Shown: piece after piece, positions 11,877 through 36,253 of the stretch
Numbering within the stretch: the first letter of the stretch is position 1
Layout of the letters: each line of letters begins with the position of its first letter
Virus record (IMG/VR): IMGVR_UViG_3300025168_000002
Strand: one strand, 5' to 3'
DNA: 64,000 nt
Source of the DNA: an uncultured virus (IMG/VR IMGVR_UViG_3300025168_000002)
Lineage: Duplodnaviria; Heunggongvirae; Uroviricota; Caudoviricetes; Crassvirales
The notes under the pieces: generated by a model
Seen by the model: only the letters and a program-made list of their open reading frames with translations
What the model was told of the DNA's origin: nothing
Databases searched by the model: none
Translations under genes and position numbers: made by a program

Positions 11877-12008
11877 TTAGCCTTTAAAGATAGCATAAAT
11901 TTTTACGCCATTTTTGTTATTAATTAGTTTTCGTTCTATCTTTTCTTTTGAAACGACAACCGCAGGTTGGAGTTTCGGGTTTTTTGAATTTAACTTACGC
12001 TTTTTCAT
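11877..12008 (-). CDS. 43-aa basic microprotein between groEL and groES
   Basis: Hand-translated MKKRKLNSKNPKLQPAVVVSKEKIERKLINNKNGVKIYAIFKG; overlaps the groEL stop and ends 3 nt before groES. Confidence 0.65.
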   Translation of the reverse strand: MKKRKLNSKNPKLQPAVVVSKEKIERKLINNKNGVKIYAIFKG

Positions 12009-13608
12009 TTGCCCTTTTATGTGTTATAATTGCGTTTGTACTTAAAATAGTTGTAGCTACAGACACAGCGTTCATTAAAGCGTTCCTAGTTACCTTCAGC
12101 GGATCAATAACTCCCATTTTAAACATATCTCCAAACTTCTCGTTCTTTACGTCATAACCCTGGCTAGCCGCCTTGTCATAAATATGTTCTACAATTAAGT
12201 GTTCTTCCATTCCTGCGTTAGAAATTATTTGATTCAATGGCGATATTAATGCTTCTGACAATATTAATACCGCTGCTTTGTAATTATTATCTTCACAAGA
12301 GTTTAATAATTTTATTAGCTTTTGTGACTCTCTAAATAGTGCTAGCCCACCACCTGACAGTATTCCTTCTTCTAATGCTGATCTAACAGCACAAACTGAG
12401 TCATCTACTCTATCATACTTTTCTTTCTGTTCTACATCTGAATTTCCACCTACATAGATACACCCTATAGCTCCTGCTAAACTTGCGATACGCTCATTTA
12501 TAAACTCACGATCATCTTTTATCTTAGTATTCTCTTGCTGTACTTTTAGATCTTCAATTCTTTTTGTAAGCTCGTCAGTAATATTATTATCTTTTAATAT
12601 AATAGTGCTCTCAAGTCCTGATATAATTTTGTCAGCATGACCCAGATCCTTTACTGTCATTAAACTTAAGTCGTCTCCAGTTTTTTCGCTATAGTATGTA
12701 GCTCCTACTGCCATAGCTATATCTTGCATAAGCTCATGAGTCTTGTATCCAAAGCTAGGTGGCTGTATGCTACAAAATTTTAATCCATTACGAGCAACAT
12801 TAGCGGCTAAAGTATTTATAACATTAGCAGAACATGGTGCAATAATTAAAAGTTTCTCTCCGTTATTTATTACTGGCTTTAAAACTCCTTCTATTTGTAA
12901 TATATTATTTATCTCTGCGTCACAAACTAATATTTTTACATCTTCTAGTATACACTCGTCTTTCTTTTGGTTATTAATAAACATATTAGAAGAATAACCC
13001 CTAGCTATTTTTATTCCGTTAGTAACCTCTGCGTATGTATCTGCCGTCATAGACTTCTCTACAGTTACTATACCGTTAATTCCTACCTTATGATAAGCGT
13101 CAGCTATAATAGTACCTATCTCTTTGTCATTATTAGCAGAGATACAGGCAACATCTAATAACCTAGCTTGTGTAACCGCCTTAGAACTCTTCTTTAAGTT
13201 CTTTATAACAGTCTTAGTTAAAGTGTTAATGTATTTTATAACCTCAGTATGATTTGTTTTCTCAGACAAAGTATCTTGCCCTGCCATAACTAGAGCTTCA
13301 GTTAATACAATAGCCGTAGTTGTTCCGTCTCCAGCTGTATTAGCCGTTCTACTAGCCGCATCTTTCATCATTTGTATTGCAAGGTTTTCTATAGGATCAT
13401 CTAAAAATACAGATTGAGCAACAGTAACACCGTCTTTAGTTATTGTTATTCCTGCTGTATGATTAGGCGATTCTATTAGAACGGTTTTACCCAAAGGGCC
13501 TAGTGTACTTTTTACTGCTTTAGAGATTGACGTTATTCCTTTGATTAATTTTTGACGAGCTTCATCATCAAAAGATAACTGCTTAGGTATGTATCCTTGA
13601 GTTTCCAT
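11995..13608 (-). CDS. groEL: Chaperonin GroEL (phage-encoded)
   Basis: TLGPLG, ITKDGVTVA, AGDGTTTA, ISANND, EEGILSGGG, GVIDPLKV; no GGM tail. Confidence 0.97.
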   Translation of the reverse strand: METQGYIPKQLSFDDEARQKLIKGITSISKAVKSTLGPLGKTVLIESPNHTAGITITKDGVTVAQSVFLDDPIENLAIQMMKDAASRTANTAGDGTTTAIVLTEALVMAGQDTLSEKTNHTEVIKYINTLTKTVIKNLKKSSKAVTQARLLDVACISANNDKEIGTIIADAYHKVGINGIVTVEKSMTADTYAEVTNGIKIARGYSSNMFINNQKKDECILEDVKILVCDAEINNILQIEGVLKPVINNGEKLLIIAPCSANVINTLAANVARNGLKFCSIQPPSFGYKTHELMQDIAMAVGATYYSEKTGDDLSLMTVKDLGHADKIISGLESTIILKDNNITDELTKRIEDLKVQQENTKIKDDREFINERIASLAGAIGCIYVGGNSDVEQKEKYDRVDDSVCAVRSALEEGILSGGGLALFRESQKLIKLLNSCEDNNYKAAVLILSEALISPLNQIISNAGMEEHLIVEHIYDKAASQGYDVKNEKFGDMFKMGVIDPLKVTRNALMNAVSVATTILSTNAIITHKRANEKA

Positions 13609-13644: not shown

Positions 13645-13873
13645 ACAAAAAATTCAACATGACAGTATCCAGAAGTGATATTGCAATTTATAACTTATTA
13701 AATTTTTTTAAATATATTTATTTTATATATATTCTTTTTTATTACTTTAAACCTGGAGTAAAATAAAATATAAAATATAAGTAGTTAGAAATCAATAAGT
13801 TAAGAAAAGTTATGTAAAGTTATTCTCCTGGTAATAAGCTGGATTAAACCTGGCAACAAGCTGTCATCTGTAT

Positions 13874-13904
13874 AAAAAAAAGAGGAAACCCTTAGGAATC
13901 CTCT
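13874..13904 (-). terminator. Intrinsic terminator after the 13939-14154 ORF
   Basis: AGAGGA/TCCTCT stem preceded by A8 on the plus strand (U-tract on minus). Confidence 0.6.
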
Positions 13905-13938
13905 CTTCACAACTAATCAAACTAAACAACGGGATGTC

Positions 13939-14154
13939 TTAATAGTTAAACATATTTTTGCTTCCGTCCATACGCATCTTAGCTCTTTCAATACCATCTG
14001 CGATACAGTCTATCTTATATTGTTTCTTCATTTGCTTTCTATACATTGACGCCTGCTCTATTCCAGTAACAGAATCCATACGATCATTTATTAGTCTACC
14101 ATTCTTTACGAATAAGCCGTTAACGTAATCTGAAGTTTTGTTATTAATGTCCAT
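13939..14154 (-). CDS. Hypothetical protein (monocistronic)
   Basis: 71 aa, NGLFVKNGRLINDR; own promoter (14169-14176) and terminator. Confidence 0.75.
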   Translation of the reverse strand: MDINNKTSDYVNGLFVKNGRLINDRMDSVTGIEQASMYRKQMKKQYKIDCIADGIERAKMRMDGSKNMFNY

Positions 14155-14576
14155 GTCTTTTTTTTTAACAAATATAATAAAAATTTTTTACACACCCTGG
14201 GCATTTGTATAATACACCACCACACGCACACGCTGAGATTTTAGAAAACGAAAATTTAAAACGCAAAAAAAAAGTTTGACTTTTTTCCCTTTGACTTTTT
14301 TGGCTTTTTGTTTAGGGTACGCGGTACCACCTGGTTTTTTTGGCTTTGTTGCAGCTTGTCCAGGGCTTAGGCGTCTACTATATGCCGTAAGTATTACTAC
14401 TTATTTGCTTGTTACTTGTTCCAGGATAACAAGAGACAACGCGAGGCGTCGCGTTATAACTGCACGAACTAAACAAACCATAAATAAAACATACAGATAA
14501 AAAGAATGTAAACGCTTGAACGTCAACAACTTACAAAGGTTTAAAATATTAATACAAAATAAATCATCTTTTTGTA

Positions 14577-14606
14577 TTGTTATGTAAATAAATTATACTA
14601 TATTTG
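14577..14606 (+). promoter_or_regulatory. First early promoter, TTG-N19-TATATTTG
   Basis: TTG 14577-14579, 19-nt spacer, TATATTTG 14599-14606. Other plus-strand -7 elements at 15212, 19309 and 28122. Confidence 0.8.
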
Positions 14607-14627
14607 AACATTAATTAAACTTATATT

Positions 14628-14795
14628 ATGACATACACGGAATTTGTAACAATATGCAACGAACACTTAATTGACGCCGAAATAGTGAGACAATCGGAAA
14701 ATTTCCAGGTGTTCGCAAATGCATTTTTTAAAGTAAAACCAACTACAAAAATGACAAGAAAAGATCTTGTTAAATTCTTAACTAAAAATTACTAA
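14628..14795 (+). CDS. First early gene, 55 aa
   Basis: Hand-translated MTYTEFVTICNEHLIDAEIVRQSENFQVFANAFFKVKPTTKMTRKDLVKFLTKNY, directly after the promoter. Confidence 0.75.
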   Translation: MTYTEFVTICNEHLIDAEIVRQSENFQVFANAFFKVKPTTKMTRKDLVKFLTKNY

Positions 14796-14798
14796 TAA

Positions 14799-15200
14799 AT
14801 GAAATATCTATCGGAATTAATGGAAGACAAACAAACACTATTATTTAATAAAACAAAAACATTCTTTGCTTTTTCTAATGAACAACTAGAAGAGGGAAAA
14901 AAGAAACATAATATTAAAAACACCAAACTTGTTTCAATGGGAGGCGGTATGATATGCCCAAAAGAAAACGCCGAGACACTAAGCCAGGGGCTTGAAAAGA
15001 TTTACAATGATTCAATACTAGAAGACATAAAACTTCACACCATAAATAGAATAGTATTAAGAGAATTAGCCAATTATGAATGTTTTTATACTGGAGATAT
15101 TTCCGACTGCGTAGAAAATTTAAGAGACTACCCAGGAATAAGCAAAAAATTAATAGTAAAGATATTTAACAAAAATTATAATAAATATAATACATATTAA
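14799..15200 (+). CDS. Conserved hypothetical early phage protein
   Basis: FFAFSNEQLEEG...MGGG...RELANYECFYTGD, a motif I recall from many phages. Confidence 0.75.
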   Translation: MKYLSELMEDKQTLLFNKTKTFFAFSNEQLEEGKKKHNIKNTKLVSMGGGMICPKENAETLSQGLEKIYNDSILEDIKLHTINRIVLRELANYECFYTGDISDCVENLRDYPGISKKLIVKIFNKNYNKYNTY

Positions 15201-15240
15201 ATAAATTTAACTATATTTGAACATTAATTAAACTTATATT

Positions 15241-15501
15241 ATGATAATAGAAAGACAAAATTTACTTATTGACTGCAATATAAAAGCAATAAAAGAAAGA
15301 TTACAAACCACATTAGCAAACATACAATTTCAAAAAGGTGTTATGTACTGGGACGACGAAGAAAAATTAGAGCATTGTATTGCGGCTTTAGAAATATTAG
15401 AAGAAGACAAAAAAAAGATTGTTAAATGTTGGAAATGTAATGCAGAAAACGAAGAGAAAGAAAATTACATTTTTTGTAATAATTGTCTAACACATTTATA
15501 A
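15241..15501 (+). CDS. Early protein with C-terminal zinc ribbon
   Basis: CWKC...FCNNC. Confidence 0.7.
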   Translation: MIIERQNLLIDCNIKAIKERLQTTLANIQFQKGVMYWDDEEKLEHCIAALEILEEDKKKIVKCWKCNAENEEKENYIFCNNCLTHL

Positions 15502-15509
15502 AATAACTT

Positions 15510-15674
15510 ATGAAAACTAAAACAGAATTACTATTAGAATTAATAAAATATTTATTTATCGTATTGATTGTTTGTATACTATCAAATACGTTTTTAAAAT
15601 ACCAGGATATGAGGATAAAAAATGCACAACTAACAAAAGAAATATTAATTGACTACAATAACGCAAAAAAATAA
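15510..15674 (+). CDS. 54-aa membrane microprotein
   Basis: Hand-translated MKTKTELLLELIKYLFIVLIVCILSNTFLKYQDMRIKNAQLTKEILIDYNNAKK. Confidence 0.6.
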   Translation: MKTKTELLLELIKYLFIVLIVCILSNTFLKYQDMRIKNAQLTKEILIDYNNAKK

Positions 15675-15677
15675 ACT

Positions 15678-15977
15678 ATGACATTCAAAAAATACAAGCA
15701 AAACTTACACCGAGAGAACAACAAAATTATTGCATACAATACGCATATTGCAACAATAAAAGGAAACAATTTAATACTTGAAGATTGGGAGATAAAAAGA
15801 ATATGGAAAGGAAAAGAAGAAACAATAAACACTAGCCCAACAACTACAAAATACATTAATTATGTAGCAAATGAATTAAACCTAACAATAAAAACAGATC
15901 TTGGAATGCAAAGCAGCGAGAAAGAAAAGAACTGGAGTATTGAAGAAGAAGATGGATATTATTTAAAAAATTATTAA
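15678..15977 (+). CDS. Hypothetical early protein
   Basis: KYKQNL...IIAYNTHIATI...SPTTTKYINYVANELNL. Confidence 0.7.
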   Translation: MTFKKYKQNLHRENNKIIAYNTHIATIKGNNLILEDWEIKRIWKGKEETINTSPTTTKYINYVANELNLTIKTDLGMQSSEKEKNWSIEEEDGYYLKNY

Positions 15978-15994
15978 CTAAAACAATTAAAACA

Positions 15995-16213
15995 ATGGAA
16001 AACGATTTAAATTTTATGAAAATGTTCCTTACTATGAACACAATGACACAAAGAGAAAATACAAGTATAAAAGACAAAGTTATATCTAAACAGAGAATTG
16101 TCTTTGCAACAATGAGAAAACTAATTCCAGACTGGGAAATGCCTTCTGATTGGGATACTTTGACGGATAAAGTAAAACTAAAAAGGTTAACAGATCTTGA
16201 AAAAATCGTATAA
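15995..16213 (+). CDS. Hypothetical early protein
   Basis: 72 aa, KQRIVFAT...PSDWDTL; repeated A-rich leader. Confidence 0.7.
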   Translation: MENDLNFMKMFLTMNTMTQRENTSIKDKVISKQRIVFATMRKLIPDWEMPSDWDTLTDKVKLKRLTDLEKIV

Positions 16214-16214
16214 T

Positions 16215-16412
16215 ATGAAAGTAACTTATGATGATACAAGAGATATATCTATAAGATGTATAAATAAATTAATAGATTCCCAGTTATTTGCTTCATTAAC
16301 TGCTGATGAACATCATTTTGAAATACAAGACATAATACAAGATGAAATAAATAAAGTATTAGGAATAGATATAGATGACAATTTTGAAATAAAAATAACT
16401 AAAATAAATTAA
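16215..16412 (+). CDS. Hypothetical early protein
   Basis: ATG at 16215 just after the upstream stop is preferred over the TTG at 16197. Confidence 0.65.
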   Translation: MKVTYDDTRDISIRCINKLIDSQLFASLTADEHHFEIQDIIQDEINKVLGIDIDDNFEIKITKIN

Positions 16413-16413
16413 A

Positions 16414-16623
16414 ATGAAAATTAAAACAGAATTTGATCAGCTAGAATACAATATTAATTTATGGAAGAAAATAGTACACCAACAAGAAAAAGAAATTCTT
16501 AATGATGTAGATAGTTTTCCTTTCTCCTGGACAGAGTACGTTCACGCCAAAACACAACTAGAAAGGGTAGCAAAGAAATTTGGAACAACTTTAGTTTATG
16601 AAATAAAAGATTATTACAGATAA
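16414..16623 (+). CDS. Hypothetical early protein
   Basis: 69 aa, tight packing with neighbours. Confidence 0.65.
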   Translation: MKIKTEFDQLEYNINLWKKIVHQQEKEILNDVDSFPFSWTEYVHAKTQLERVAKKFGTTLVYEIKDYYR

Positions 16624-16688
16624 CTTGTCTAAAACTTGTGTATATAATAATTAATACTTATATTAGCTAACTAAAACAATTAAGCAAA

Positions 16689-16892
16689 ATGAAAATAATA
16701 ATATCAGAATATTCTAAGGTTATTGCAAAACATATAGATGTAAATGATGAGAAACAAGCAGATACATTTGATATAATAGAATTAGCAATACAAATAGGAG
16801 AGGATAATCACTTATATGATAATGGTAATTGGAATGATATTAATAGAAAAAAATGCTATAATAAAGCATACGAAATAACTAAAAACAATTAA
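16689..16892 (+). CDS. Hypothetical early protein
   Basis: 67 aa; preceded by a TTG...TATATTAG promoter variant and the repeated leader. Confidence 0.65.
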   Translation: MKIIISEYSKVIAKHIDVNDEKQADTFDIIELAIQIGEDNHLYDNGNWNDINRKKCYNKAYEITKNN

Positions 16893-16897
16893 ACAAA

Positions 16898-17380
16898 ATG
16901 AAAATAATAGCAAAAATTACAAGAGATTACGATTCTCAACTGAGCGTAGAAAGATGGAGAGATGATTTAAGAAATGAACTTGAACAATTAGATGTTAATG
17001 TATGGACAAAAGATAAGCATTGGTTCTTTATGGAACAACTTTTGAAAAACCAAGATACACTACCCGATCAATTTTCTAATAGTATAACGGCAGAAGCAAT
17101 AGGTTATGTCCAGGGAGAATATGCAAAATTCCAAATCTATTATAATGGAGAAGTAGAAAAAGTAGAAAATCTTAAAAAAATACTAGAGAAAACTTATACA
17201 CATAAAAACGATTATTTAATAGAGACGATAGAAATGCTCTCTTCAGGACATAGTAGAGTAGTAAACAGATGCGTTATTTCTGTTGATGATGTTGAATTTC
17301 CAGGATTAGAAGACATAAAAAAAGAAATTGGAGAAAGTTGGGAGATGGAAAGGTTTGACGAATATGAATTAACACAATAA
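16898..17380 (+). CDS. Hypothetical early protein
   Basis: 160 aa, acidic. Confidence 0.7.
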   Translation: MKIIAKITRDYDSQLSVERWRDDLRNELEQLDVNVWTKDKHWFFMEQLLKNQDTLPDQFSNSITAEAIGYVQGEYAKFQIYYNGEVEKVENLKKILEKTYTHKNDYLIETIEMLSSGHSRVVNRCVISVDDVEFPGLEDIKKEIGESWEMERFDEYELTQ

Positions 17381-17382
17381 TT

Positions 17383-17661
17383 ATGAAAAGTAAAAAACAA
17401 CTGCTAAAAATATGGGAACAAGTACAATTTGAATATTATGTCAATTTAAATTTTGCACAACTATCAAAAGAATACATTTCTTGGTTTGCTGATAAACCAG
17501 AGAATTATCTGATAGATACTGACAACAAGTATTCTAGAAATGAATTAATAAACGCCCTAATGGAGAGCGAATACGATTGTAGGGTAGATGATGATATTAA
17601 TGAATTAGATAAATTAATAGAAAAAATAGAAATGATCAATTTTAATCAAAATAATAAATAA
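17383..17661 (+). CDS. Hypothetical early protein
   Basis: 92 aa, tight packing. Confidence 0.65.
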   Translation: MKSKKQLLKIWEQVQFEYYVNLNFAQLSKEYISWFADKPENYLIDTDNKYSRNELINALMESEYDCRVDDDINELDKLIEKIEMINFNQNNK

Positions 17662-17662
17662 T

Positions 17663-18055
17663 ATGAAAATAGCAACAGAACTATCAATAAATAAAGAAGA
17701 ATTAGAACTTATAACAAGAGCAATAGAATCTTACTTGTATTACGATATGAGAGATGATATAAGCATGAACGTAGATAAACAAAAAGCTACGATGGAAGAT
17801 ATATATTCAAAACTAATAGTGTTAAATAAATTAGAAAGTAAATTAAATATAATTCAGTCTGATTATAATAAACCTTTTACATTAATGACTTATAAAGATA
17901 GTTATGGAAAGGTATTTCATGATGTTTGCACAAACGATCCAAAAAAATACTTAAAAAGATTAAACGAAGATAGAATTGCTGATGGAGAAGAGGAAGAAAA
18001 TATTAGTAGTTACACATTAACTGACATACATATAGAAACCTTTAAAAATAAATAA
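17663..18055 (+). CDS. Hypothetical early protein
   Basis: 130 aa; C-terminal TNDPKKYLKRLNEDRIADGEEEE. Confidence 0.7.
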   Translation: MKIATELSINKEELELITRAIESYLYYDMRDDISMNVDKQKATMEDIYSKLIVLNKLESKLNIIQSDYNKPFTLMTYKDSYGKVFHDVCTNDPKKYLKRLNEDRIADGEEEENISSYTLTDIHIETFKNK

Positions 18056-18057
18056 TT

Positions 18058-18228
18058 ATGAATTTAACTAAAGAAGAGAAACAAGAAAAAGAAAACTTAA
18101 AAAAAGAATTATTTGAGGATCAGACATGGAGCATATTGGTAGATCCACAATATCCTCTTAAGGTAAGTAGATATAACTACTTAGTAATGAAAGAGGCAAA
18201 CTCTTTGTTAAAATTAGATGAATCATGA
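18058..18228 (+). CDS. 56-aa hypothetical early protein
   Basis: Hand-translated MNLTKEEKQEKENLKKELFEDQTWSILVDPQYPLKVSRYNYLVMKEANSLLKLDES; ATGA overlap with the next gene. Confidence 0.65.
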   Translation: MNLTKEEKQEKENLKKELFEDQTWSILVDPQYPLKVSRYNYLVMKEANSLLKLDES

Positions 18229-18452
18229 CTGATTTAAGAGTAACTAGCATAAGAACATACAACACCAGGAGAGGCGTAGGGTATGAATGCAAAACAAATT
18301 TCAAAGGTGTATCTATTTGGAATGATGGAAATGGAGGGCAAACCTATCTTAACTTTGATTTAAGAGACGAATCTTTTAACCCAAAAGAGTATGAAGAATT
18401 GTCAGAATGGGATCTTGAAGACTTAATTACCAAATACGAAGAAGAATTATAA
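18225..18452 (+). CDS. Hypothetical early protein
   Basis: TRRGVGYECKTN...IWNDGNGGQTY. Confidence 0.7.
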   Translation: MTDLRVTSIRTYNTRRGVGYECKTNFKGVSIWNDGNGGQTYLNFDLRDESFNPKEYEELSEWDLEDLITKYEEEL

Positions 18453-18471
18453 TTAAAAATTATTAAATAAA

Positions 18472-18681
18472 ATGATAGTAAAAGAATTAATTGCAGAACT
18501 GCAAAAAATAGAAAACAAAGATAAGTACATACACTTATTAGGAAACAGAACTAACGGAGAAGATGGGGATTTTGATATTATATTTAATAATATTGAAATA
18601 TGGAATGATGGAGATGAAAGCATTACTTTGTTTACAAGTATAATAACCGAATTAGATGAAAATCATAAACCAATAAATTAA
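18472..18681 (+). CDS. Hypothetical early protein
   Basis: Starts MIVKELIAELQK, an N-terminus common in small phage proteins. Confidence 0.7.
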   Translation: MIVKELIAELQKIENKDKYIHLLGNRTNGEDGDFDIIFNNIEIWNDGDESITLFTSIITELDENHKPIN

Positions 18682-18686
18682 ATAAA

Positions 18687-18953
18687 ATGAAAGTAAAAAT
18701 TATGCAAAGATCAGTATATCATAAATATGCTGAAGTAGAGATTGAAGTACCTAATGATATTAAAGATAAAGATGTTTTAGAATATTTACAGGAAAATGAA
18801 GAGTTATTTGTTGATAAAATAGATAAAGCGTGTTCTGAAGCCCCTTTTGAGTATGGATCTTGTGGAGTAGATGAGTATGATGGAATGAATGAAAGGGGAG
18901 ATAGTGAATGTAGATATGATATTGTAGGTAAAAATTACGGAGGACATTTATAA
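18687..18953 (+). CDS. Hypothetical early protein
   Basis: 88 aa, ends YGGHL. Confidence 0.7.
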   Translation: MKVKIMQRSVYHKYAEVEIEVPNDIKDKDVLEYLQENEELFVDKIDKACSEAPFEYGSCGVDEYDGMNERGDSECRYDIVGKNYGGHL

Positions 18954-18969
18954 ATATAATACATTAATT

Positions 18970-19311
18970 ATGGGATATAGAAGCACAATTATAATAGGGG
19001 TAAATAAAAAATATGAAAAAGATTTAAAAGCGTTAAACAAAAATTCTATGTTTAAAAAAGTTGATCAAAGTTTTAACGAAGCAAGATCATTATCTATGGT
19101 AATTTATAGAGGAGAATATTTAAAATGGTATGATAGTTTTGAAGATGTTAATGCTATAAATAAATATATATTACACCTTATTGAAGAAGACGACGAAAAT
19201 GCGTTTATTGTAGGCATAGGAGAAGACGGAAATATTCACACAGAACATGGGCATTACTACGATTTTGTTGGAATATTTACTACTCACGAAATATATGGAG
19301 AAAACGATTAA
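18970..19311 (+). CDS. Conserved hypothetical phage protein
   Basis: MGYRS...LKWYDSFEDV...FIVGIGED pattern. Confidence 0.7.
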   Translation: MGYRSTIIIGVNKKYEKDLKALNKNSMFKKVDQSFNEARSLSMVIYRGEYLKWYDSFEDVNAINKYILHLIEEDDENAFIVGIGEDGNIHTEHGHYYDFVGIFTTHEIYGEND

Positions 19312-19323
19312 CTTTGTAATAAA

Positions 19324-20094
19324 ATGAAAAAATTTGTTATATCTATTGAATTAAGCAAGTTAAATTTTGACAAGAACGTAGAGTTAGTTACTAATTCTAT
19401 TAGTTTTATTGAAGCTAAAGACTTTCCTATCAAGAAAGTTCAAGATAATATACAGCAGTACATTAACCAGGTATGTAGCTTTGATTTCAATAGTATTATT
19501 AAAGTAAGTAAAACAGATTGGATAATTGACGAAGACTATATTAATGCGTCTTTTTATAGAATAAGCAGATCTTTACACTTAGGTTTTATAATAGACTATG
19601 ATAATTCTACTGATGTATGGTACCTGGTGCATGGAAGAATACAAAGGGTATCTGTAAAGGTAAAAGAATTAAAAGATGATGATTGCATGATTGTCTCTCC
19701 TTTGTTGTCTCATAATCTGTATTGTTTAAACCAACAGAGTACAATTAATTTATTAGATAACTTGTGGAAAGTAACGCAGTTGTACGAGATAAATAAAAGA
19801 AAAGAAGATCCGCTTAACCCCTTAACTCAATCTCCGTACACCAACCAGGATTGGAACGATCATTTGGCTACGTTATGGACAAAAAAATATCAAAAAACTA
19901 CTAATTCGTATGATCATGATGTTATATCATATTATTTTAATGCTGAATACTTAGATTATAACGATTATGATATGAATAGCGGAGAGGTAATTGAGTATAC
20001 TCTCCTGGACTATGCTCAAAATAAACAATTAGAAAGTAATTTGTTAGCTGTTCTTGTAAGATCAGAAACAGATATGCAAGATTTATTTAGCTAA
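19324..20094 (+). CDS. Hypothetical protein
   Basis: 256 aa; own TAACTTTG promoter at 19309-19316. Confidence 0.7.
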   Translation: MKKFVISIELSKLNFDKNVELVTNSISFIEAKDFPIKKVQDNIQQYINQVCSFDFNSIIKVSKTDWIIDEDYINASFYRISRSLHLGFIIDYDNSTDVWYLVHGRIQRVSVKVKELKDDDCMIVSPLLSHNLYCLNQQSTINLLDNLWKVTQLYEINKRKEDPLNPLTQSPYTNQDWNDHLATLWTKKYQKTTNSYDHDVISYYFNAEYLDYNDYDMNSGEVIEYTLLDYAQNKQLESNLLAVLVRSETDMQDLFS

Positions 20095-20246
20095 ATTTTG
20101 ATTTGAAGTAAAAATATTGTAATATTACACACTAATTGAATTTTATATAAACATACAAAGAGTTGATGTTAGGCGAAATCAACAATGTAATTAGAAGCTG
20201 TTCGGCGTGTTTCTTTCTCTTTTTTATTAACTTAATACATAAGAAA

Positions 20247-20423
20247 ATGGATAAAGACTATAAAAAATACTTTAACAAGTATAAATACAGGGCATTAGAT
20301 TATAATGACTGGATAGACTATATAGTAAAAGAACATAAAAACTTGAGATCTAAAAATTTAGAGAAGAAAATAAAAAAACAAAGAGAACAAGTTAAAGAAA
20401 CCCCTATAAACTTTAACTGGTAA
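20247..20423 (+). CDS. Hypothetical protein (58 aa)
   Basis: ATG at 20247 with an A-rich leader; the longer track start runs through an RNA-like structure. Confidence 0.6.
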   Translation: MDKDYKKYFNKYKYRALDYNDWIDYIVKEHKNLRSKNLEKKIKKQREQVKETPINFNW

Positions 20424-20629
20424 TGGGGGTAGAAATGGTTAGTAAGTGCTGTGGAAGTGATTGGGTAGACTCTATTGATGCTGAATTAGAGATTGATTCT
20501 TTTGAATATTATGTTTGTAATTCTTGTCAAGACTATTGTGAGATTACAGAAGATTACGAGTACAGGCAAATGAGACTTGATCAAATAGCAGAGATGGAAG
20601 CTGATGAGCGTAGAGACTTAGGAAGATGA
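20423..20629 (+). CDS. Small Cys-rich (zinc-binding) protein
   Basis: SKCCGS...YVCNSCQDYC. Confidence 0.7.
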   Translation: MGVEMVSKCCGSDWVDSIDAELEIDSFEYYVCNSCQDYCEITEDYEYRQMRLDQIAEMEADERRDLGR

Positions 20630-20757
20630 GAGAGGTGCAAGAAATGATCCTTAAGGAAAAACTAAAGGAAAAGCCAAACAGAAAATTTATACAATGGTTG
20701 CAGAAGTTAAACCAAACCATACTAAAGCAAATAATTTTAAATAATTATAAGAAATAA
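20626..20757 (+). CDS. 43-aa hypothetical protein
   Basis: Hand-translated MREVQEMILKEKLKEKPNRKFIQWLQKLNQTILKQIILNNYKK; ATGA overlap. Confidence 0.6.
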   Translation: MREVQEMILKEKLKEKPNRKFIQWLQKLNQTILKQIILNNYKK

Positions 20758-20890
20758 GAGGTGGGAATAATCCCATAATTTTATAGGTGTAAGATACCTT
20801 AATATTAAATGTTTACCTCTTATAATGTAAAGGGGCAGTTATAAAGGCATAAGCCAACGATAAGTTAATACTCTTAACTGTCCCTTTATA
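20754..20890 (+). ncRNA. Putative structured RNA: two tandem three-way junctions
   Basis: Outer stems 20754-62/20815-23 (9 bp) and 20828-41/20875-88 (14 bp), each enclosing two short hairpins with TAA-containing loops. Confidence 0.5.
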
Positions 20891-20908
20891 TAAATAAAAT
20901 AAAATAAT

Positions 20909-21148
20909 ATGAAAGAATTGTCTACATACCTGGTAAATCAATGTAAGAAAGCCCAGGAAAAGAAAAAATACGATATAAAAAATAGACTAAATTATATAGA
21001 AATGAATAATTTTTTTAAAAATAGTGGTAAACAAGAATTAAATAATAAATTTGTAGCTTGTAGCTACTATTCCAATATTACTCCCCCTCAATTTCAATGG
21101 GAAAGAAATGATATGAGTAAGTATAAATTAAAAAATTACAGAAAATGA
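20909..21148 (+). CDS. Hypothetical protein
   Basis: 79 aa, A-rich leader. Confidence 0.65.
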   Translation: MKELSTYLVNQCKKAQEKKKYDIKNRLNYIEMNNFFKNSGKQELNNKFVACSYYSNITPPQFQWERNDMSKYKLKNYRK

Positions 21149-21408
21149 GTAAAGATCCTAAATTATATGTTCCGTCTCACACTATTGAAGTACCTAACTA
21201 TTATGTAGGAGACACATACAGAGAGGGGTACTATCAAGCAAGATATGTGGTGGAAGACTTTAATTGTACATGGAACATAGGTAACGTTGTTACATATTGT
21301 CTCCGTAGTTCTAGAAAGCACGAAAGCCCCATAGAATGTTTACAAAAATCTATAAATCATCTCAAGTTTGAGATAGAAAGATTAGAAAAATTAAATAAAA
21401 AAAAATAA
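21145..21408 (+). CDS. DUF3310 (SaV-like) protein
   Basis: VPNYY...VVEDFNCTWNIGNVVTYCLRSSRKH...CLQKSINHLKFEIE. Confidence 0.75.
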   Translation: MSKDPKLYVPSHTIEVPNYYVGDTYREGYYQARYVVEDFNCTWNIGNVVTYCLRSSRKHESPIECLQKSINHLKFEIERLEKLNKKK

Positions 21409-21409
21409 A

Positions 21410-21712
21410 ATGAAAAGAGAAATATTTGATAAGTATGCAACTGCAATAGCAGATAGATTTCATGTAACATTAGATGAAATGTTTACAAAAACTAAAAAAA
21501 GAGAAGTCGTAGAAGCAAGACAAATGCTATACTTTTTGTCAAGAGAACGTCCAATAAGGTTTTCTTATATTCAAAAATTCATGGAAGATAACGGACACCC
21601 CGTAACACATTCTACCATTATTTACGGATATAACAAAGCAAAAAAGTTTGTAGATAGTGATCCTGACTATAAAGAGGTTGTAGATAGTATTTTAAAAAAT
21701 TCAGTAAGCTAA
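21410..21712 (+). CDS. DnaA C-terminal (domain IV)-like helix-turn-helix protein
   Basis: KTKKREVVEARQMLYFLSRE...I...HSTIIYG matches the Bac_DnaA_C pattern (R...AR..AMYL...HTTV). Confidence 0.75.
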   Translation: MKREIFDKYATAIADRFHVTLDEMFTKTKKREVVEARQMLYFLSRERPIRFSYIQKFMEDNGHPVTHSTIIYGYNKAKKFVDSDPDYKEVVDSILKNSVS

Positions 21713-21713
21713 A

Positions 21714-22136
21714 ATGTATACCCTTTCTGATATATATAAACAAGCAGTAGATGATGAAACACTAAATATACAAAGGAATGGATCGGTAAGCATGATCAAT
21801 CTAGGAGTAAAGATACAAAAGTTTCCTAGTAAAACAGAAATACTTAATTGTGCAAAAAATGGAGATTACTTTCAAGAGTTAAGCCTGGAAGAGTATAAAA
21901 TTTTTTTTACTAAGGGCTGGGTTGTTGGATGCGTAACAATAGCTATAAACAACTGCATTAGAAAGCTGAAAATGATACAAAAAAGCATGAAGGAGGAGGT
22001 TAACACCAGGAAGAATGATAAATATATTAAGAATTTAAAAACAAAACGGGAGTTTGTAATGAACAGATATTCTTATTACAGTCAAAAACTAATTAAACTA
22101 AATAAATATGAAAAAATTAAAAACGGTAAATATTAA
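21714..22136 (+). CDS. Hypothetical protein
   Basis: 140 aa, within the replication operon. Confidence 0.65.
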   Translation: MYTLSDIYKQAVDDETLNIQRNGSVSMINLGVKIQKFPSKTEILNCAKNGDYFQELSLEEYKIFFTKGWVVGCVTIAINNCIRKLKMIQKSMKEEVNTRKNDKYIKNLKTKREFVMNRYSYYSQKLIKLNKYEKIKNGKY

Positions 22137-22638
22137 AGGTAAAGAGTATGTTGAAGTGCATACCAGGATACAATACTTTAGAGAGACATATCCTCAGTAT
22201 ACTTTAGACACAAGTATAATAGAAATCACAGAGGACACTATCACAATGAAAGCATTTATACTTAACGAAGAGGGACGTCTTCTAGCGTCGGGAACGGCTA
22301 AGGAAAGAAACGGATCTTCTTTTATAAATAAAACATCTTATGTTGAGAATTGCGAAACATCAGCATGGGGTAGGGCTTTGGGTAACTTTGGAATAGGGCT
22401 AGACACATCAGTTGCATCAGCAGACGAGGTAAAGAATGCTATTTTAAATGAGAGAAAAGAGCCGACAAAACCTACTAGCGTTGTTCTTGACTTGGGAGAT
22501 GCTGATATGAAAAAAACATTAGACTGGATAGCGTCAAATAAATCTATGGGATTACCTAAGATTGTCAAAACTTTAGAGCAGAAATATAAAATTACTGCAA
22601 AAGTAAAAAAGGAGATTGCTAACATTATAATAGAATAG
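22108..22638 (+). CDS. Single-strand annealing protein (Rad52/Sak-like)
   Basis: KGKEYVEVHTRI...ASGTAKE...SFINKTSYVENCETSAWGRALGNFGIG...SVASADEV; upstream of the exonuclease. Confidence 0.7.
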   Translation: MKKLKTVNIKGKEYVEVHTRIQYFRETYPQYTLDTSIIEITEDTITMKAFILNEEGRLLASGTAKERNGSSFINKTSYVENCETSAWGRALGNFGIGLDTSVASADEVKNAILNERKEPTKPTSVVLDLGDADMKKTLDWIASNKSMGLPKIVKTLEQKYKITAKVKKEIANIIIE

Positions 22639-22640
22639 CC

Positions 22641-23393
22641 ATGATAGTTAGCGATAATAATAAAGAAGTTTTAGATCAACTAAAAGACGATAAAAAATAT
22701 TATGGAAAGTTTGGTAAACAATGGTTGTCTAATTCAGACATATATACTTTACTAAACAATCCAAAAGAATTTGGCAAACCTCAAGCAGAAACAAAAGCTA
22801 TGCTAGAGGGTAGATTTTTTCATACAGCCATGTTAGAAAAAGAAAAGCTAGATGATTTTATTTTAATAGACGCCTCTAGTCGTAATACTAAGGCGTATAA
22901 AGAGGCTGTAAATAGTGAAGATAATAAAATGTGTTTATTAGTTCATGAAGCTGAAAAAATATTTAAATTAGTTGACTCTATGAAAGCAAATATGCAAATG
23001 CATGGAGATATTTATGAGGAATCAAATCAATATGAATTGCCTATGATAAAAAATATCCATGGCAAATTCTGGAAAGGTAAAGCGGATATTGTAACTACCG
23101 AAAAAATAATTGATTTAAAAACTACGTCAGATATTTCTAAGTTTTCATACTCAGCTTCAAAGTATAACTATGATAGCCAGGCGTTTATATATCAAGAGTT
23201 GTTTGGACTACCTATGGAGTTTTATGTTATAGATAAAAATACGCATCAATTAGCTATCTACACCCCGAGCGAAGATTTTATTCACAGAGGATCATTAAAG
23301 GTTTTAGAGGCGTTGCAAGTACACGACAAGTTCTTTTGTGATGGTTTGTTTGCAGAAGACATAGAACAATTCATACATTATGAAACATTATAA
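22641..23393 (+). CDS. PD-(D/E)XK exonuclease (RecE / DUF3799-like)
   Basis: LSNSDI, GRFFHTAMLE, WKGKADIV..IIDLKTT, YNYDSQAFIY. Confidence 0.85.
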   Translation: MIVSDNNKEVLDQLKDDKKYYGKFGKQWLSNSDIYTLLNNPKEFGKPQAETKAMLEGRFFHTAMLEKEKLDDFILIDASSRNTKAYKEAVNSEDNKMCLLVHEAEKIFKLVDSMKANMQMHGDIYEESNQYELPMIKNIHGKFWKGKADIVTTEKIIDLKTTSDISKFSYSASKYNYDSQAFIYQELFGLPMEFYVIDKNTHQLAIYTPSEDFIHRGSLKVLEALQVHDKFFCDGLFAEDIEQFIHYETL

Positions 23394-23553
23394 AATAGCT
23401 TATCAAGTATTAAAACACTATCTTTCTAAGTTGTCCTGGGAAAGAGAAATATTTATAGTAGAAGTTCCAACTACTATGGAGAGCGAACAGCAAAAGCAAC
23501 AGCTTATGGCTGACGTTTTAGAAATTTTGGAGCATCAAGTTAAAATACATTAA
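23380..23553 (+). CDS. 57-aa hypothetical protein
   Basis: Hand-translated MKHYKIAYQVLKHYLSKLSWEREIFIVEVPTTMESEQQKQQLMADVLEILEHQVKIH; fills the gap. Confidence 0.6.
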   Translation: MKHYKIAYQVLKHYLSKLSWEREIFIVEVPTTMESEQQKQQLMADVLEILEHQVKIH

Positions 23554-23555
23554 AA

Positions 23556-23843
23556 ATGGAAGATAAAAAAATTTTTGTTGGATCAGGTATATCAAAGTTT
23601 GAAGGAAATCTTGTGTCTTGTAGTATATGTCTTTCTGATTTACCATCAGAACATATATTTGAGTACAATTCTAAGAAATACATAAAACTGAATGTCCAAA
23701 AGAAAAAAGAAGTAGATCAGTATGGTAAATCACATTCTGTATCTATTGACACTTGGAAGCCAGAGCCTAAGAAAGAAGACCTTTCAGCAAAACTGGAAAG
23801 TATGAAGGTTACTCCAGACAACGATCCAGATTTGCCGTTTTAA
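23556..23843 (+). CDS. Putative single-stranded DNA-binding protein
   Basis: KKYIKLNV..KKEVDQYGKSHSVSIDTWKP and acidic C-terminal DPDLPF tail. Confidence 0.65.
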   Translation: MEDKKIFVGSGISKFEGNLVSCSICLSDLPSEHIFEYNSKKYIKLNVQKKKEVDQYGKSHSVSIDTWKPEPKKEDLSAKLESMKVTPDNDPDLPF

Positions 23844-23955
23844 CCATAAAGGGGGTGGACGAACGGCGTTTTGCCACCCAACAATAACAGGGGGTTTAAG
23901 AGCTTCCAGTTTTAATTAAATTTTTATATCTACCCCCTTTTTTTAATTTAATATA

Positions 23956-26337
23956 ATGCAAATAACAATTTTTAAAGACATAAAAGACACATCACAACCA
24001 TTTTACAGAAATGTTATGGTAGTGCTGGAAAGAATAGAGCAAGGGAACTCAAAAGATATAGTAAAAAAAATAAGACTTACAAAAAACAAAGAAGAAAGAA
24101 ACGATTTAAAAAAACAATTACCAGCAATATGTTTTAGCGGAAACTTTACTAAAAGAAACGACGCCTCTCTAACAGAGCATAGCGGCTTAATTTGTTTAGA
24201 TTTTGACGGATACAAATCAAGTAAAGATTTGCTCCAGGAAAAAGAAAAATTAACTAAAAATAAATTTGTTTTTTCTGTTTTTATATCTCCTAGTGGTAAA
24301 GGTTTAAAAGTTTTAGTTAAAGTTCCAAAAGACGTAGATAACCATAAAAATTATTTCTCATCATTAAACAAATATTTTAATTCACCATACTTTGACACAA
24401 CCTCAAAAAATGTTTCTAGAGTCTGTTACGAGTCTTATGATCCTTTAGTTCATATAAATTTGACGTCAAGCCTTTGGGATAAAATAGAGGAAGTGGAGTT
24501 TGTTGAATTAAACAAGTATAAAGACAAGCCAACAATACCTGTTACAGATGAAAATAAAATTGTAGATATTCTTATGAAGTGGTGGGAGAATAAATATGGG
24601 CTGGTAAACGGAGAGAGAAATAATAATGTTTTTATTTTAGCATCAGCCTTTAATGATTTTGGAGTTCCTAAAAATTTAGCTGAATATGTTATGGGTAATT
24701 TTGATTCAAAAGATTTTAATATAAACGAAATTAGAAGAACAATAAATTCCGCATACGCACAAGTTCAAAATTTTGGAACTAAGTATTATGAAGATCAAGA
24801 CAGGGTAAACCTGGTAAAACAACAACTCAGGCGTGGCGTCTCAAAAAAAGAGATCCGATGTCAATTAGAGGACGAAAAAATTGATATCGGTGACATAGAA
24901 AACGTTATAGTAAGAATAGAGGAAGAGCAAACTAATCATAAGTTTTGGACTAAAAATGAAAAAGGAGTAATAAAAATAGTACATATATTATTTAAGAACT
25001 ACCTGGAAGACAATGGTTTTTATAAGTTTAGCCCAGAGGGTAGTAAAAATTATGTATTCGTTAGAGTAACCAACAATTTAATAGATCATACGTCTGAAAA
25101 AGAAATCAAAGATTTTGTTTTAAATTATTTACTTACAGTTGATGATCTTTCTGTCTACAATTATTTTGCTGAACAAACTAGATATTTTAGGGAAGAGTTT
25201 CTAACATTAATGGCTTCAATAAATGTTTTTTTTATAGCCGACACTAAAGACGTAGCATACTTGTACTATATGAATTGTGCTGTTAAAATTACAAAAACTG
25301 ATATTATACTAATTGATTATTTAGATTTAGGTGGTTATGTATGGAGAGATCATGTTATAGATAGGACTTTTACTTTATGTAAAGTGGGTAGTTGCGATTA
25401 TAAAGTTTTTATTTCAAATATTTGTGGCGAAGACGATAGCCGAGTAAACTCTATGGAGTCTACCATTGGTTATTTGCTGCATGGTTGGAAAAATTTATCA
25501 TACTGTCCAGCTGTTATACTTAATGATGAAATTATATCAGACAATCCTGAGGGTGGTACTGGTAAGGGGTTGTTTATGAACGCATTAGCTAAAATGAAGA
25601 AATGTGTAACCATAGACGGAAAGAGTTTTACGTTTGAAAGATCATTTGCATATCAATTAGTTTCGGCTGATACACAAATATTGTGTTTTGATGATGTAAA
25701 GAAATCTTTTGATTTTGAAAGATTATTTAGCATAATAACAGAGGGGATAACGCTTGAGCGTAAAAACAAGGATGCAGTGAAAATTCCTTTTAGTAAATCT
25801 CCTAAAGTTTCTTTAACAACAAATTATGCTTTAAAAGGAAAGGGATCTTCTTTTGAAAGAAGAAAGTGGGATCTTGAATTAGCACATTTTTACACGAAAG
25901 ACTTTACTCCTTTGGTAGAGTTTGGAAAACTTATGTTTGGAGAGTGGGACGATACTGAATGGTGTCAGTTTGATAATTATATGATGACTAACTTGCAGTT
26001 ATATCTTAACAATGGATTAATTAAGGGTAATTTTGTAAACAAAAAAATAAAAGATTTGTCTAGCGAGACTTGTCATGAATTTATAGAGTGGTGCGGTTTA
26101 GTAGGAGACTCACAGATAAATGAAAAAATTAAACCAAATAGCAGAATGTATAAGCAAGACTTGTATGATGAGTTTATTAGCGAATATCCTGATTTCGCTC
26201 CTAAATCAAAGTTTACCGTCCCCCGCAGAAGGTTTTATAATTGGATAAAGGCTTACTCGGCTTACGAATACAATAGTTTACCCGAAGAGGGTAGAGATTT
26301 AGGCGGTAGATATTTTATGTTTAAAACTAATGATTAA
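23956..26337 (+). CDS. Primase-helicase (BT4734/VirE_N-type primase + PriCT-like domain + P-loop helicase)
   Basis: LKKQLPAICFSG, HSGLICLDFD, FISPSGKGLKV, SRVCYESYDP; GERNNNVFILA; Walker A EGGTGKGL and Walker B ILCFDD. Confidence 0.85.
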   Translation: MQITIFKDIKDTSQPFYRNVMVVLERIEQGNSKDIVKKIRLTKNKEERNDLKKQLPAICFSGNFTKRNDASLTEHSGLICLDFDGYKSSKDLLQEKEKLTKNKFVFSVFISPSGKGLKVLVKVPKDVDNHKNYFSSLNKYFNSPYFDTTSKNVSRVCYESYDPLVHINLTSSLWDKIEEVEFVELNKYKDKPTIPVTDENKIVDILMKWWENKYGLVNGERNNNVFILASAFNDFGVPKNLAEYVMGNFDSKDFNINEIRRTINSAYAQVQNFGTKYYEDQDRVNLVKQQLRRGVSKKEIRCQLEDEKIDIGDIENVIVRIEEEQTNHKFWTKNEKGVIKIVHILFKNYLEDNGFYKFSPEGSKNYVFVRVTNNLIDHTSEKEIKDFVLNYLLTVDDLSVYNYFAEQTRYFREEFLTLMASINVFFIADTKDVAYLYYMNCAVKITKTDIILIDYLDLGGYVWRDHVIDRTFTLCKVGSCDYKVFISNICGEDDSRVNSMESTIGYLLHGWKNLSYCPAVILNDEIISDNPEGGTGKGLFMNALAKMKKCVTIDGKSFTFERSFAYQLVSADTQILCFDDVKKSFDFERLFSIITEGITLERKNKDAVKIPFSKSPKVSLTTNYALKGKGSSFERRKWDLELAHFYTKDFTPLVEFGKLMFGEWDDTEWCQFDNYMMTNLQLYLNNGLIKGNFVNKKIKDLSSETCHEFIEWCGLVGDSQINEKIKPNSRMYKQDLYDEFISEYPDFAPKSKFTVPRRRFYNWIKAYSAYEYNSLPEEGRDLGGRYFMFKTND

Positions 26338-27562
26338 GTTTAGAGAATATCAATCTGAAATTATAGAGAAATCTTTAAATATTTTAAACTTAAATCGTTT
26401 CGTTTATTTAGCTATGGAGGTTAGAACAGGTAAAACTCTTACAAGTCTGGGGATAGCTAGTCGTCTTAGTGTCTCTTCTGTTTTGTTTATAACAAAGAAA
26501 AAAGCCATATCAAGTATAGTAGATGATCATAATTTATTAAAACCAGGGTATGATTTGACTGTAATTAATTACGAAAGTATTCATAAATTACCTAAAAACA
26601 AATGGGGTTTAGTAGTGTGTGATGAGGCTCATTCTATGGGTGCATTTCCTAAGCCAAGTAAAAGAGCAAGGCAAGTTAAAGAATTAATTATGTATTGTAA
26701 TCCTTATGTAATATTGTTGTCTGGAACTCCAACTCCTGAATCTTTTAGCCAAATGTTTCATCAAGTTTATGGTATACCTGGTAATCCTTTTTCTAATTGT
26801 AAAAACTTTTACGCTTTTGCAAAGTCTTATGTTGATGTAAAGCAAAGAAAAATTAATAGTATGTTTATTAATGATTACTCAAGGGGTACCGACAAGATAT
26901 TACAAAAAATAAACCCTTACATTATTAATTATACGCAAAAATTGGCAGGCTTTAAAACAAAAACAACTGAAAAAGTGTTATATGTAGATTTAAAAAAATC
27001 AACTATAAAAATTATAAATCAGTTAAAAAAAGACAGAGTTATAGAAGGTAAAGAAGAATTATTATTAGCAGACACACCAGCTAAACTTATGATTAAAACA
27101 CATCAACTTTGTTCTGGAACAATCAAATTTGAAAGCGGTAACTCAATAATTTTAGACTACTCAAAAGCAGAGTTTATACTAAATAAATTTAAACGTCAAA
27201 AAATAGCAATTTTTTATAAGTTTACCCAGGAATATAATGCTTTAAAAGAGATCTACAAAGACTTAATTACTAATGACTTAGAAGAGTTTAAAAACTCTAA
27301 CAAAAGTATTGCGTTGCAAATAGTATCAGGAAGAGAGGGGATAAGTTTAAAAGAAGCTAATGCATTGGTTTATTATAATATAGATTTTTCAGCTACATCA
27401 TACTGGCAAAGCAGAGACAGAATGACTACTAAAAATAGACTCGTTAATAATGTTTATTGGATTTTTAGCAGAGACGGAATTGAAAAAGATATATACAAAG
27501 CGGTGGTTAAAAAGAAAGATTACACCCTTGCTCATTTTAAAAGAGATTTGTTAGATTTGTAA
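26330..27562 (+). CDS. Superfamily 2 (SNF2-like) helicase
   Basis: FREYQ, MEVRTGKT, CDEAH, LLSGTP, SGREGISL, QSRDR. Confidence 0.9.
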   Translation: MIKFREYQSEIIEKSLNILNLNRFVYLAMEVRTGKTLTSLGIASRLSVSSVLFITKKKAISSIVDDHNLLKPGYDLTVINYESIHKLPKNKWGLVVCDEAHSMGAFPKPSKRARQVKELIMYCNPYVILLSGTPTPESFSQMFHQVYGIPGNPFSNCKNFYAFAKSYVDVKQRKINSMFINDYSRGTDKILQKINPYIINYTQKLAGFKTKTTEKVLYVDLKKSTIKIINQLKKDRVIEGKEELLLADTPAKLMIKTHQLCSGTIKFESGNSIILDYSKAEFILNKFKRQKIAIFYKFTQEYNALKEIYKDLITNDLEEFKNSNKSIALQIVSGREGISLKEANALVYYNIDFSATSYWQSRDRMTTKNRLVNNVYWIFSRDGIEKDIYKAVVKKKDYTLAHFKRDLLDL

Positions 27563-27563
27563 T

Positions 27564-27803
27564 ATGACAGAGCAAAAAATTCAAGAAAAAAGAATTGGAG
27601 AGCTGGAGGCAAAAGGATATTTTGTTATTAAATTAACTTTGACAAATAAAAATGGTATACCAGATTTACTGGCCATACCCCCTGGCTCTGACGTTTTGTT
27701 TTCTGAAATAAAAAAACCTGATGGAAAACTTTCCAGGTTACAAGAGTTTAGACTAAAACAGTTAAATGATCATGGATGTAAGACAGAAGTATATAGAGGC
27801 TAA
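27564..27803 (+). CDS. VRR-NUC nuclease
   Basis: MTEQKIQ...NGIPDLL...FSEIKKPDGKLSRLQ. Confidence 0.85.
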   Translation: MTEQKIQEKRIGELEAKGYFVIKLTLTNKNGIPDLLAIPPGSDVLFSEIKKPDGKLSRLQEFRLKQLNDHGCKTEVYRG

Positions 27804-28107
27804 GGGTTATGATGTGGAAGATTATTTCATGGATAACCTTTCTGAATTAGATCTTTACACCGCTCTTAAAATTGCAACTTTTATAGAAAAAAATTTACAA
27901 AGCATACCAGTTACAAGGCTAGGATCTGTAGTTTTGGGAGGTTGCGTTGTTCATACCGTTGGAGATCCTATAACTTTTGTGATAGAAATGGTTCGTAAAA
28001 AAAACTGCTACACTACCTTAACAGACATAGCTTTAATATCTATGGATGAGTATTTAGATTTGATGCTGTTAAATTGTTATATAAAAAATTCTGAAAAATT
28101 AGGATAA
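27766..28107 (+). CDS. Hypothetical protein
   Basis: 113 aa; exact start uncertain. Confidence 0.6.
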   Translation: MIMDVRQKYIEAKGYDVEDYFMDNLSELDLYTALKIATFIEKNLQSIPVTRLGSVVLGGCVVHTVGDPITFVIEMVRKKNCYTTLTDIALISMDEYLDLMLLNCYIKNSEKLG

Positions 28108-28145
28108 GTCGTTATTTTTTTTATATTTGATAAAACCAAGTATAA

Positions 28146-36247: not shown

Positions 36248-36253
36248 GCTTTA

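Follow-up and report, generated by a model that had tools for sequence, protein, structure and literature searches.

CCWGG sites form a one-sided gradient on the early arm of an uncultured phage genome

The IMG/VR record IMGVR_UViG_3300025168_000002 is a 64,000-nucleotide stretch of DNA (hereafter the window) from an uncultured virus, in which late genes run leftward from 13608 and small early genes and replication genes run rightward from 14628. Here, we found that the word CCWGG is strongly over-represented on the rightward arm independently of the protein sequences, and that the excess begins sharply where the two arms diverge and decays to one side. Selection on the whole word is supported, CCWGG-rich loci fall on three branches of a primase tree, and in further lineages different words are loaded at this place. 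One restriction-type word has been gained on a stretch where other such words are purged. As the best explanation, with a probability of roughly 45%, we propose that the sites carry host-written methyl marks on the first-entering DNA, which would damp a methylation-sensing defence.

CCWGG excess and its gradient

A preliminary description, made from the letters and open reading frames, had listed 26 CCWGG sites between 13750 and 23440, and all 26 positions were exact starts of the word in our recount; the whole window holds 91. The region has 28.6% GC, and Markov models of orders 0 to 3 predicted 2.8, 3.4, 3.2 and 8.5 sites in it, while 500 dinucleotide-preserving shuffles gave a mean of 3.4 and a maximum of 9. 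CCAGG/CCTGG was the top 5-mer of this region. When codons were shuffled synonymously with the proteins fixed, the sites that do not encode a Pro-Gly pair numbered 17 against 1.8 expected in the early genes, 8 against 1.2 in the replication genes (23.5-29.4 kb), and 14 against 6.2 in the late genes. The enrichment goes beyond chance and survives both kinds of shuffle, and the GC-ending codons given earlier as examples of how the sites are built were correct at the codon level.

The density in the structural arm had been put at about half. This agrees with the raw values of about 1.2 and 2.7 sites per kb, and the late sites are often Pro-Gly pairs as had been described (36 of the 50 late coding sites), but once these pairs are removed the contrast becomes about tenfold. 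The region first described is enriched, but the real extent is larger, covering the whole plus arm to about 30 kb with a tail to about 42 kb. We counted as optional every position where CCWGG can be made synonymously, and recorded the realised fraction per bin: 23/168 at 15-30 kb, 8/154 at 30-42 kb, and 5/388 in the rest of the late arm, indicating an excess that is non-uniform along the genome. The 30-42 kb bins differed from the remaining late arm (p=0.012), although they already lie in minus-strand structural genes. Given that the tail crosses into structural genes, and that GroEL on the other side of the divergence point carries a single site, the signal tracks the one-sided distance from the gap between the arms and not gene class.

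The onset is abrupt at the point of gene divergence (about 13.7-14.3 kb). The gradient was repeated, more sharply, in the related record G002, where the realised optional sites were 5/26, 14/39, 13/40, 8/30 and 2/35, followed by at most one per bin. In 9 of 11 anchored genomes, the lineage's own word began to cluster 570-940 bp beyond the start of GroEL, and the GroEL side had 0-2 sites; one of the nine had a single earlier site, the window itself starts at +144, and G006 has too few sites.

On the plus strand, the core zone holds 21 CCAGG and 17 CCTGG at irregular spacings of 22-1541 bp, and no flanking consensus, longer motif or operator was found around the sites. CCGG, CCSGG and GGWCC are entirely missing between 13750 and 23440, TCGA and GCGC are close to zero, and the early genes have lost GACC (0 against 12.4 expected), CAAGG (0 against 5.2) and GGATG (1 against 6.8). 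A second word, GRCGYC, occurred 7 times against 0.9 expected in the plus-arm genes and 3 times against 4.3 in the late genes, a post hoc comparison since the word was chosen after ACGCC had been seen.

Relatives and word switching

We compared 87 distinct loci, near-identical genomes included, whose sequence extends 5.5 kb or more upstream of the primase. At least fourfold CCWGG excess was present in 12 of them and 30 had no site at all. The rich loci fell on three primase branches, namely the window, the L059 clade and L281, and the starred branches of a 23-row primase tree, on which alone the trait was mapped (the frameshifted L034 being given no weight), force three changes. The nearest relatives of the window (86-90% primase identity) are not CCWGG-rich, and only one of nine same-residue optional sites is common to the window and G003, indicating a separate origin of the sites on the window's branch.

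Other lineages load GTTTAAAC, ACGTG, CCCG or CCAGC, with the same onset behind a conserved non-coding element. CTGGTC, GAGCTC, CTCCAG and CCGG are less firm, each being the best among thousands of words tested, for which a p near 1e-4 is weak. Moreover, the CCWGG-rich lineages carry second words: AGGCC in L059 (23 against 4.4 expected), GGCC (30 against 12.3) and CGCG (22 against 8.8) in L281, and GCGC in six loci (from 6 against 1.2 to 20 against 8.2). These second words are palindromes of the cytosine-methylase type and differ between sub-lineages, which fits a host methylome better than one phage protein. MTCGAK, the word of class 1 DISARM, was not enriched in the related loci. An early-only avoidance of words seen in relatives was set aside as partly an artefact, the late sites being mostly obligatory Pro-Gly.

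Some relatives encode a small C5 methyltransferase (220-260 aa) among their early genes (L427:1471-2250 and 14 other loci). In the carriers CACG was the top word, with a median ratio of 1.73 against 1.13 (11 and 51 loci, which are not independent), and avoidance of GTGA was relaxed, which hints at the target of the enzyme. Separately, the longer form Y-GTTTAAAC-R, mostly CGTTTAAACG, is loaded on the early arm of L144, L143, L283 and L298 (G410, G411), and close pairs of CGTTTAAAC(G) were seen in 78 viral stretches (L317-L394) with a GC content of 22-64%, a word used by unrelated phages.

Selection, repair bias and the role of the sites

In E. coli, very-short-patch repair by the Dcm/Vsr system biases sequences toward CCWGG and away from CTWGG, and Vsr-type repair alters the inner base only. 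The preliminary description had named such a bias as a possible cause. It would require no selection, CTWGG being turned into CCWGG by T:G repair of replication errors or of recombination heteroduplex concentrated at the genome end. The window phage does resemble E. coli in that CTWGG is lowered (6 against 12.3 in the early genes); CAWGG is not depleted, the late genes show an inner shift only (outer C at 9/42), most of the loaded words are cytosine-methylase words, and three Flavobacteriales loci have a vsr gene next to a CCWGG-type methyltransferase. However, the outer C is also raised in the early genes of the window (15/28 against 0.28, p=0.004) and over three lineages (24/42 against 0.30, p=2e-4; 28/90 in ten control loci), and purine-ending codons that require a transversion are depleted over the three lineages (11/40 against about 0.52, p=0.001; controls 58/116), a depletion that does not reach significance when the window is taken by itself (6/16, p=0.23). 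The pooled tests count three separate lineages, L059 and L064 not being counted twice. Between L059 and L087, where the residues are unchanged, 32 of 33 optional sites persist, as do 27 of 27 outer synonymous bases, compared with a background retention of 230/294, 154/204 and 45/71 (63-78%); between L059 and L064, 10 of 15 optional sites are kept against 0.26 expected. The effect thus differs from the E. coli bias in involving outer bases and transversions, in being local (non-uniform at synonymous positions, as counted above) and tenfold, and in the conservation of the sites. Because the shift extends to outer bases and to transversions, and because diverging relatives retain their sites, these results support selection on the whole word, strongly in the relatives and more weakly from the window alone, and a Vsr-type bias as the sole cause is improbable and is not supported. 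The intact CAWGG, the missing outer shift of the late genes and the loss of one window site in an allele seen in three of four runs weigh against selection.

The excess could also be a by-product of escape from neighbouring restriction words such as CCAG or CAGG into a form that overlapping methylation blocks, or the array could act as a decoy for a nuclease or methylase of the host. Consistent with this, single-base neighbours are depleted (TCWGG 5 against 10.8 in the window, ACWGG 4 against 16 in L059), the early arm is purged of other words, and the related phage MW202828 avoids CCAG almost completely. Escape from CCAG and CAGG nevertheless fails because their totals exceed the neutral expectation, at 31 against 18.8 and 24 against 15.0 in the window and 45 against 26.1 in L059; the CCWGG sites also have no flanking consensus, and the gain from a decoy would be unclear if the sites get cut. 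We give both versions little chance.

Selection for a host mark or for a protein-binding site had been suggested before; selection on the word stands, on DNA that probably enters first, and the word may carry a host mark or bind a phage protein. In the reading that we prefer, the phage would be selected to carry many cytosine-methyltransferase words on the DNA entering the host first. Its genome would have fixed ends in the 13.6-14.6 kb gap, with the early arm leading. The methyltransferase of the previous host would methylate CCWGG and GRCGYC, the phage having none, and the defence of the next host would load at the incoming DNA end and be damped or stopped by methylated cytosines, in a manner like that of DISARM DrmAB. 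Denser marks near the end would raise survival until early anti-defence genes act, and the benefit would decay with distance from the end, giving the gradient. The end is placed by analogy with Gundel_1, for which PhageTerm predicts a 322-bp terminal repeat (PMC8776804) that sits at a similar divergence point upstream of small early genes, the portal identity being 27%. In a wider form, which we put forward tentatively, a family of marine flavophages would write whichever words its host methylates into the leading arm in an entry-order gradient, passing an undescribed defence that measures mark density from the DNA end. If this is true, one could infer from the enriched words both the methylome of the host and the position of the genome end in uncultured phages.

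Several observations are consistent with host-written marks. Marine viral genomes are reported to be methylated at CCWGG, GGCC, CGCG, GAGCTC and CYCGRG, with a methyltransferase encoded in 14 of 83 and not in 69 of 83 (PMC9516812). DrmAB is described as being repressed by 5mC methylation, without sequence-specific activation (PMC9142583), and class 2 DISARM methylates CCWGG (10.1101/2021.12.28.474362; PMC12926258). The word is the same as here, and a helicase that senses DNA ends and is repressed by methylation would favour dense marks; site gain as a means of escape is absent from the DISARM accounts examined (PMC9142583; 10.1101/2021.12.28.474362). CCWGG-type methyltransferases and DrmA/DrmB genes are both present among 401 Flavobacteriales genomes, the Dcm-like genes in 10 of them, with vsr beside 3 of the 10.

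Other observations weigh against it. Class 2 DISARM is reported still to restrict modified phage (PMC9142583), its protection does not scale with site number in phage genomes (10.1101/2021.12.28.474362; PMC12926258), and DrmAB requires a 5' overhang. The six best Dcm-like genes (57-60% identity) adjoin EcoRII- or MvaI-type nucleases, which should select against CCWGG sites. DUF1998 was found in 16 of the 401 genomes with no overlap with the 10 Dcm-like genomes, no methyltransferase was present in the DNA examined around six DrmA+DrmB loci, and the set yielded no DISARM locus that includes a CCWGG-type methyltransferase. Contig ends are not clustered at the conserved element (7 of 64 within 400 bp, evenly spread), contigs from four public runs cross the gap, and, among the differences listed, the site at 14705 is lost in a co-occurring allele in three of the four runs. 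Finally, the lineage loaded with GTTTAAAC shows the same gradient together with a candidate phage-encoded reader.

As further observations on these Flavobacteriales loci, six of them (L222-L226, L229) carry DrmA-DrmB operons with an upstream gene of 770-835 aa, with DrmE in L222, and one Flavobacteriales DrmA-DrmB operon adjoins an Argonaute gene. No C5 motif occurred in Druantia-sized helicase loci.

The sites might instead be bound by a sequence-specific protein of the phage itself, which would coat or protect the leading DNA or draw it in, with the word and its reader changing in step between lineages; we regard this as rather unlikely. As candidate readers we considered the first early gene product and a virion-delivered domain. 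GTTTAAAC has the same onset and decay in the same family, with 33 core copies in 22 kb in L144 and 14 against 0.9 expected in L283, and its 10-mer CGTTTAAACG is not iterated in the 401 Flavobacteriales genomes (maximum 16). A SprT-like gene, placed first among the early genes, turned up in 2 of 38 records, and these are precisely the near-complete records rich in GTTTAAAC; the match is weak (E ~1e-4, below the Pfam cut-off), and the search was negative in two GTTTAAAC-rich fragments that do not include that end. Moreover, the enzyme domains of the giant virion protein differ from lineage to lineage, its variable middle carrying HTH and N4/N6 methyltransferase domains in two records (L071/G412, G434) and a GNAT domain in L100, and the 2146-aa protein of the window is a candidate reader. 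However, no gene that every CCWGG-rich lineage has and the poor ones lack was recovered by an all-against-all comparison of 52 loci, limited to DNA no more than 10 kb from the primase (the coverage for L281 and L267 in all searches), by a comparison of the window open reading frames with 19 records, or by profiles of five candidates over 87 loci, searches that remote homologues could escape. Relatives of the DUF7659 gene are not CCWGG-rich, the middle of the giant protein is common to non-rich lineages, and two or three unrelated words per lineage would need several readers.

Two side observations concern these candidates: the SprT-like product is a 209-aa zinc-ribbon protein (L395:1258-1887), and the giant protein of G434 has an HExxH motif. 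The giant-protein methyltransferase of L071 was rejected as the source of an early-only word, CAGC being uniform there.

The first-step-transfer DNA of T5 is purged of restriction sites. Dispersed short words that are iterated as protein-binding sites include the stoperators of cluster A mycobacteriophages, Chi and HIP1. CCWGG is like the latter in being written into coding sequence through synonymous change, but differs in being a five-base quasi-palindrome with no strand bias, a gradient from one point, several words per lineage and no reader found. A Chi-like signal was rejected, since the core zone has no single orientation and several sister words are palindromic. The leading region of Murciavirus is likewise reported to be purged of restriction sites (PMC12455610), and the window shares with Murciavirus and T5 a short-word selection confined to what is presumed here to be the leading region, including the loss of GACC, CAAGG and GGATG, but differs in having one or two words enriched 5-10 fold in a decaying gradient. 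Leading regions are treated as depleted or neutral for such words in the accounts consulted (PMC12455610; PMC13478746; MANTIS preprint), and no description of their enrichment on leading DNA was found in the literature searched, which mostly excluded subscription papers. What is new here is the position gradient, the sharp onset behind the conserved element, the three branches in one family, the tests against Vsr and the second words. Phage leading regions are expected to lose restriction-type words, but these phages have acquired and retained them, and their lineages have exchanged one word for another at the same genomic position. Either a host defence favours DNA that arrives with methyl marks, or the phages encode interchangeable readers that recognise short addresses in the leading part of their own genomes. 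The gradient may also help to locate genome ends from sequence alone, and perhaps to suggest which motifs the host methylates.

Gene content and feature map

The nearest record, G001, matches the window at 99.9% and places about 0.8 kb between the window's end and start, giving a genome of about 64.8 kb. Judged by its genes, the window is a nearly complete Bacteroidota-type marine podovirus-like phage: the primase, portal and terminase match MW202828, the Flavobacterium elemo phages, Calle_1 and Gundel_1, Pfam finds GroEL, GroES and crAss-type muzzle domains, and the records carrying matching sequence are marine metagenomes. It resembles the Pachyviridae, Pervagoviridae and Elemovirus flavophages (PMC8776804) in portal and terminase homology and in the divergent early and late arms, and Calle_1 also in having GroEL/GroES, but the window proteins are only 27-45% identical to theirs. 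Primase matches in genome contigs comprised two loci, in a Flavobacteriales and a Cytophagales metagenome-assembled genome, at 56-64% identity, and give no host assignment.

No methyltransferase had been visible in the preliminary description, and none was found by Pfam on 67 open reading frames of the window or, for C5 enzymes, by phmmer in its six frames with nine query proteins (C5 methyltransferases and one overlapping open reading frame). Profile searches with PF01555 and PF00145 were negative in G001, and none was found in G002 and G409, both incomplete records; a phage-encoded enzyme marking its own genome is thus absent from the searches of all four. Five large proteins have no DxDxD-type motif of a virion RNA polymerase, and the 2146-aa protein has no recognised domain and no Pfam, PDB, NCBIfam or useful atlas match.

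Table 1. Features of the window relevant to the CCWGG excess
Feature	Position	Strand	Basis
GroEL gene; one CCWGG in 1.6 kb, sharp left edge	11995..13608	-	Pfam, site count
Divergence gap between late arm (-) and early arm (+); 7 CCWGG outside called genes	13609..14627		gene map, sites; genome end placed here by analogy to Gundel_1
Core zone of CCWGG excess; 38 sites, both orientations	13752..30482		site count, shuffles
Conserved 71-aa open reading frame beside the divergence point, used as anchor	13939..14154	-	homologues in relatives
Second word GRCGYC; 10 of the window's 14 sites	14048..28172		word counts
Conserved non-coding element, word clusters starting right behind it; candidate terminus/packaging signal	14170..14310		comparison of related loci
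Non-coding leader of higher GC; 3 CCWGG, 2 GRCGYC, 3 of the 7 CGCG in the window, several short hairpins	14300..14460		word counts, folding z = -2.2
47-bp repeat, copy 1, holding TATATTTG; likely host-type early promoter	14585..14631	+	sequence repeat
28 small early genes; 17 optional CCWGG vs 1.8	14628..23553	+	codon shuffles, gene map
47-bp promoter-like repeat, copy 2, 96% identical	15198..15244	+	sequence repeat
Replication module (primase/helicase, SF2 helicase, VRR-NUC, exonuclease); 8 optional CCWGG vs 1.2	23556..29430	+	Pfam, homologues
Putative virion cargo protein, 2146 aa	29807..36247	-	comparison with relatives
Fading tail inside minus-strand structural genes	30483..42000		optional-position bins
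Portal and large terminase, named from homologues	51849..56533	-	places phage near Elemovirus, Pervagoviridae, Pachyviridae

The conserved element was detected in 61 of the 224 loci examined, many of the 224 ending before its position. Hairpins in the leader behind it include AACGCGA/TCGCGTT. The 47-bp repeat is presumably a promoter, which we take from the Bacteroidota TAnnTTTG consensus. GroES and GroEL (11616-13608) lie directly beside the presumed genome end. In public runs, a divergent allele of the first early genes (14537-15008) co-occurs, and the gene at 15241-15501 is skipped in one public-run contig.

In MW202828 (L009, L010), CCAG, GATC and CCGG are almost or wholly missing from 61 kb, and the remaining four CCAG are all CCCAGG/CCTGGG, probably unavoidable Pro-Gly. 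In the window itself, CTTA/TAAG is the most under-represented 4-mer (562 against 819) and GGAAC/GTTCC the most over-represented 5-mer, both listed for 29500-64000.

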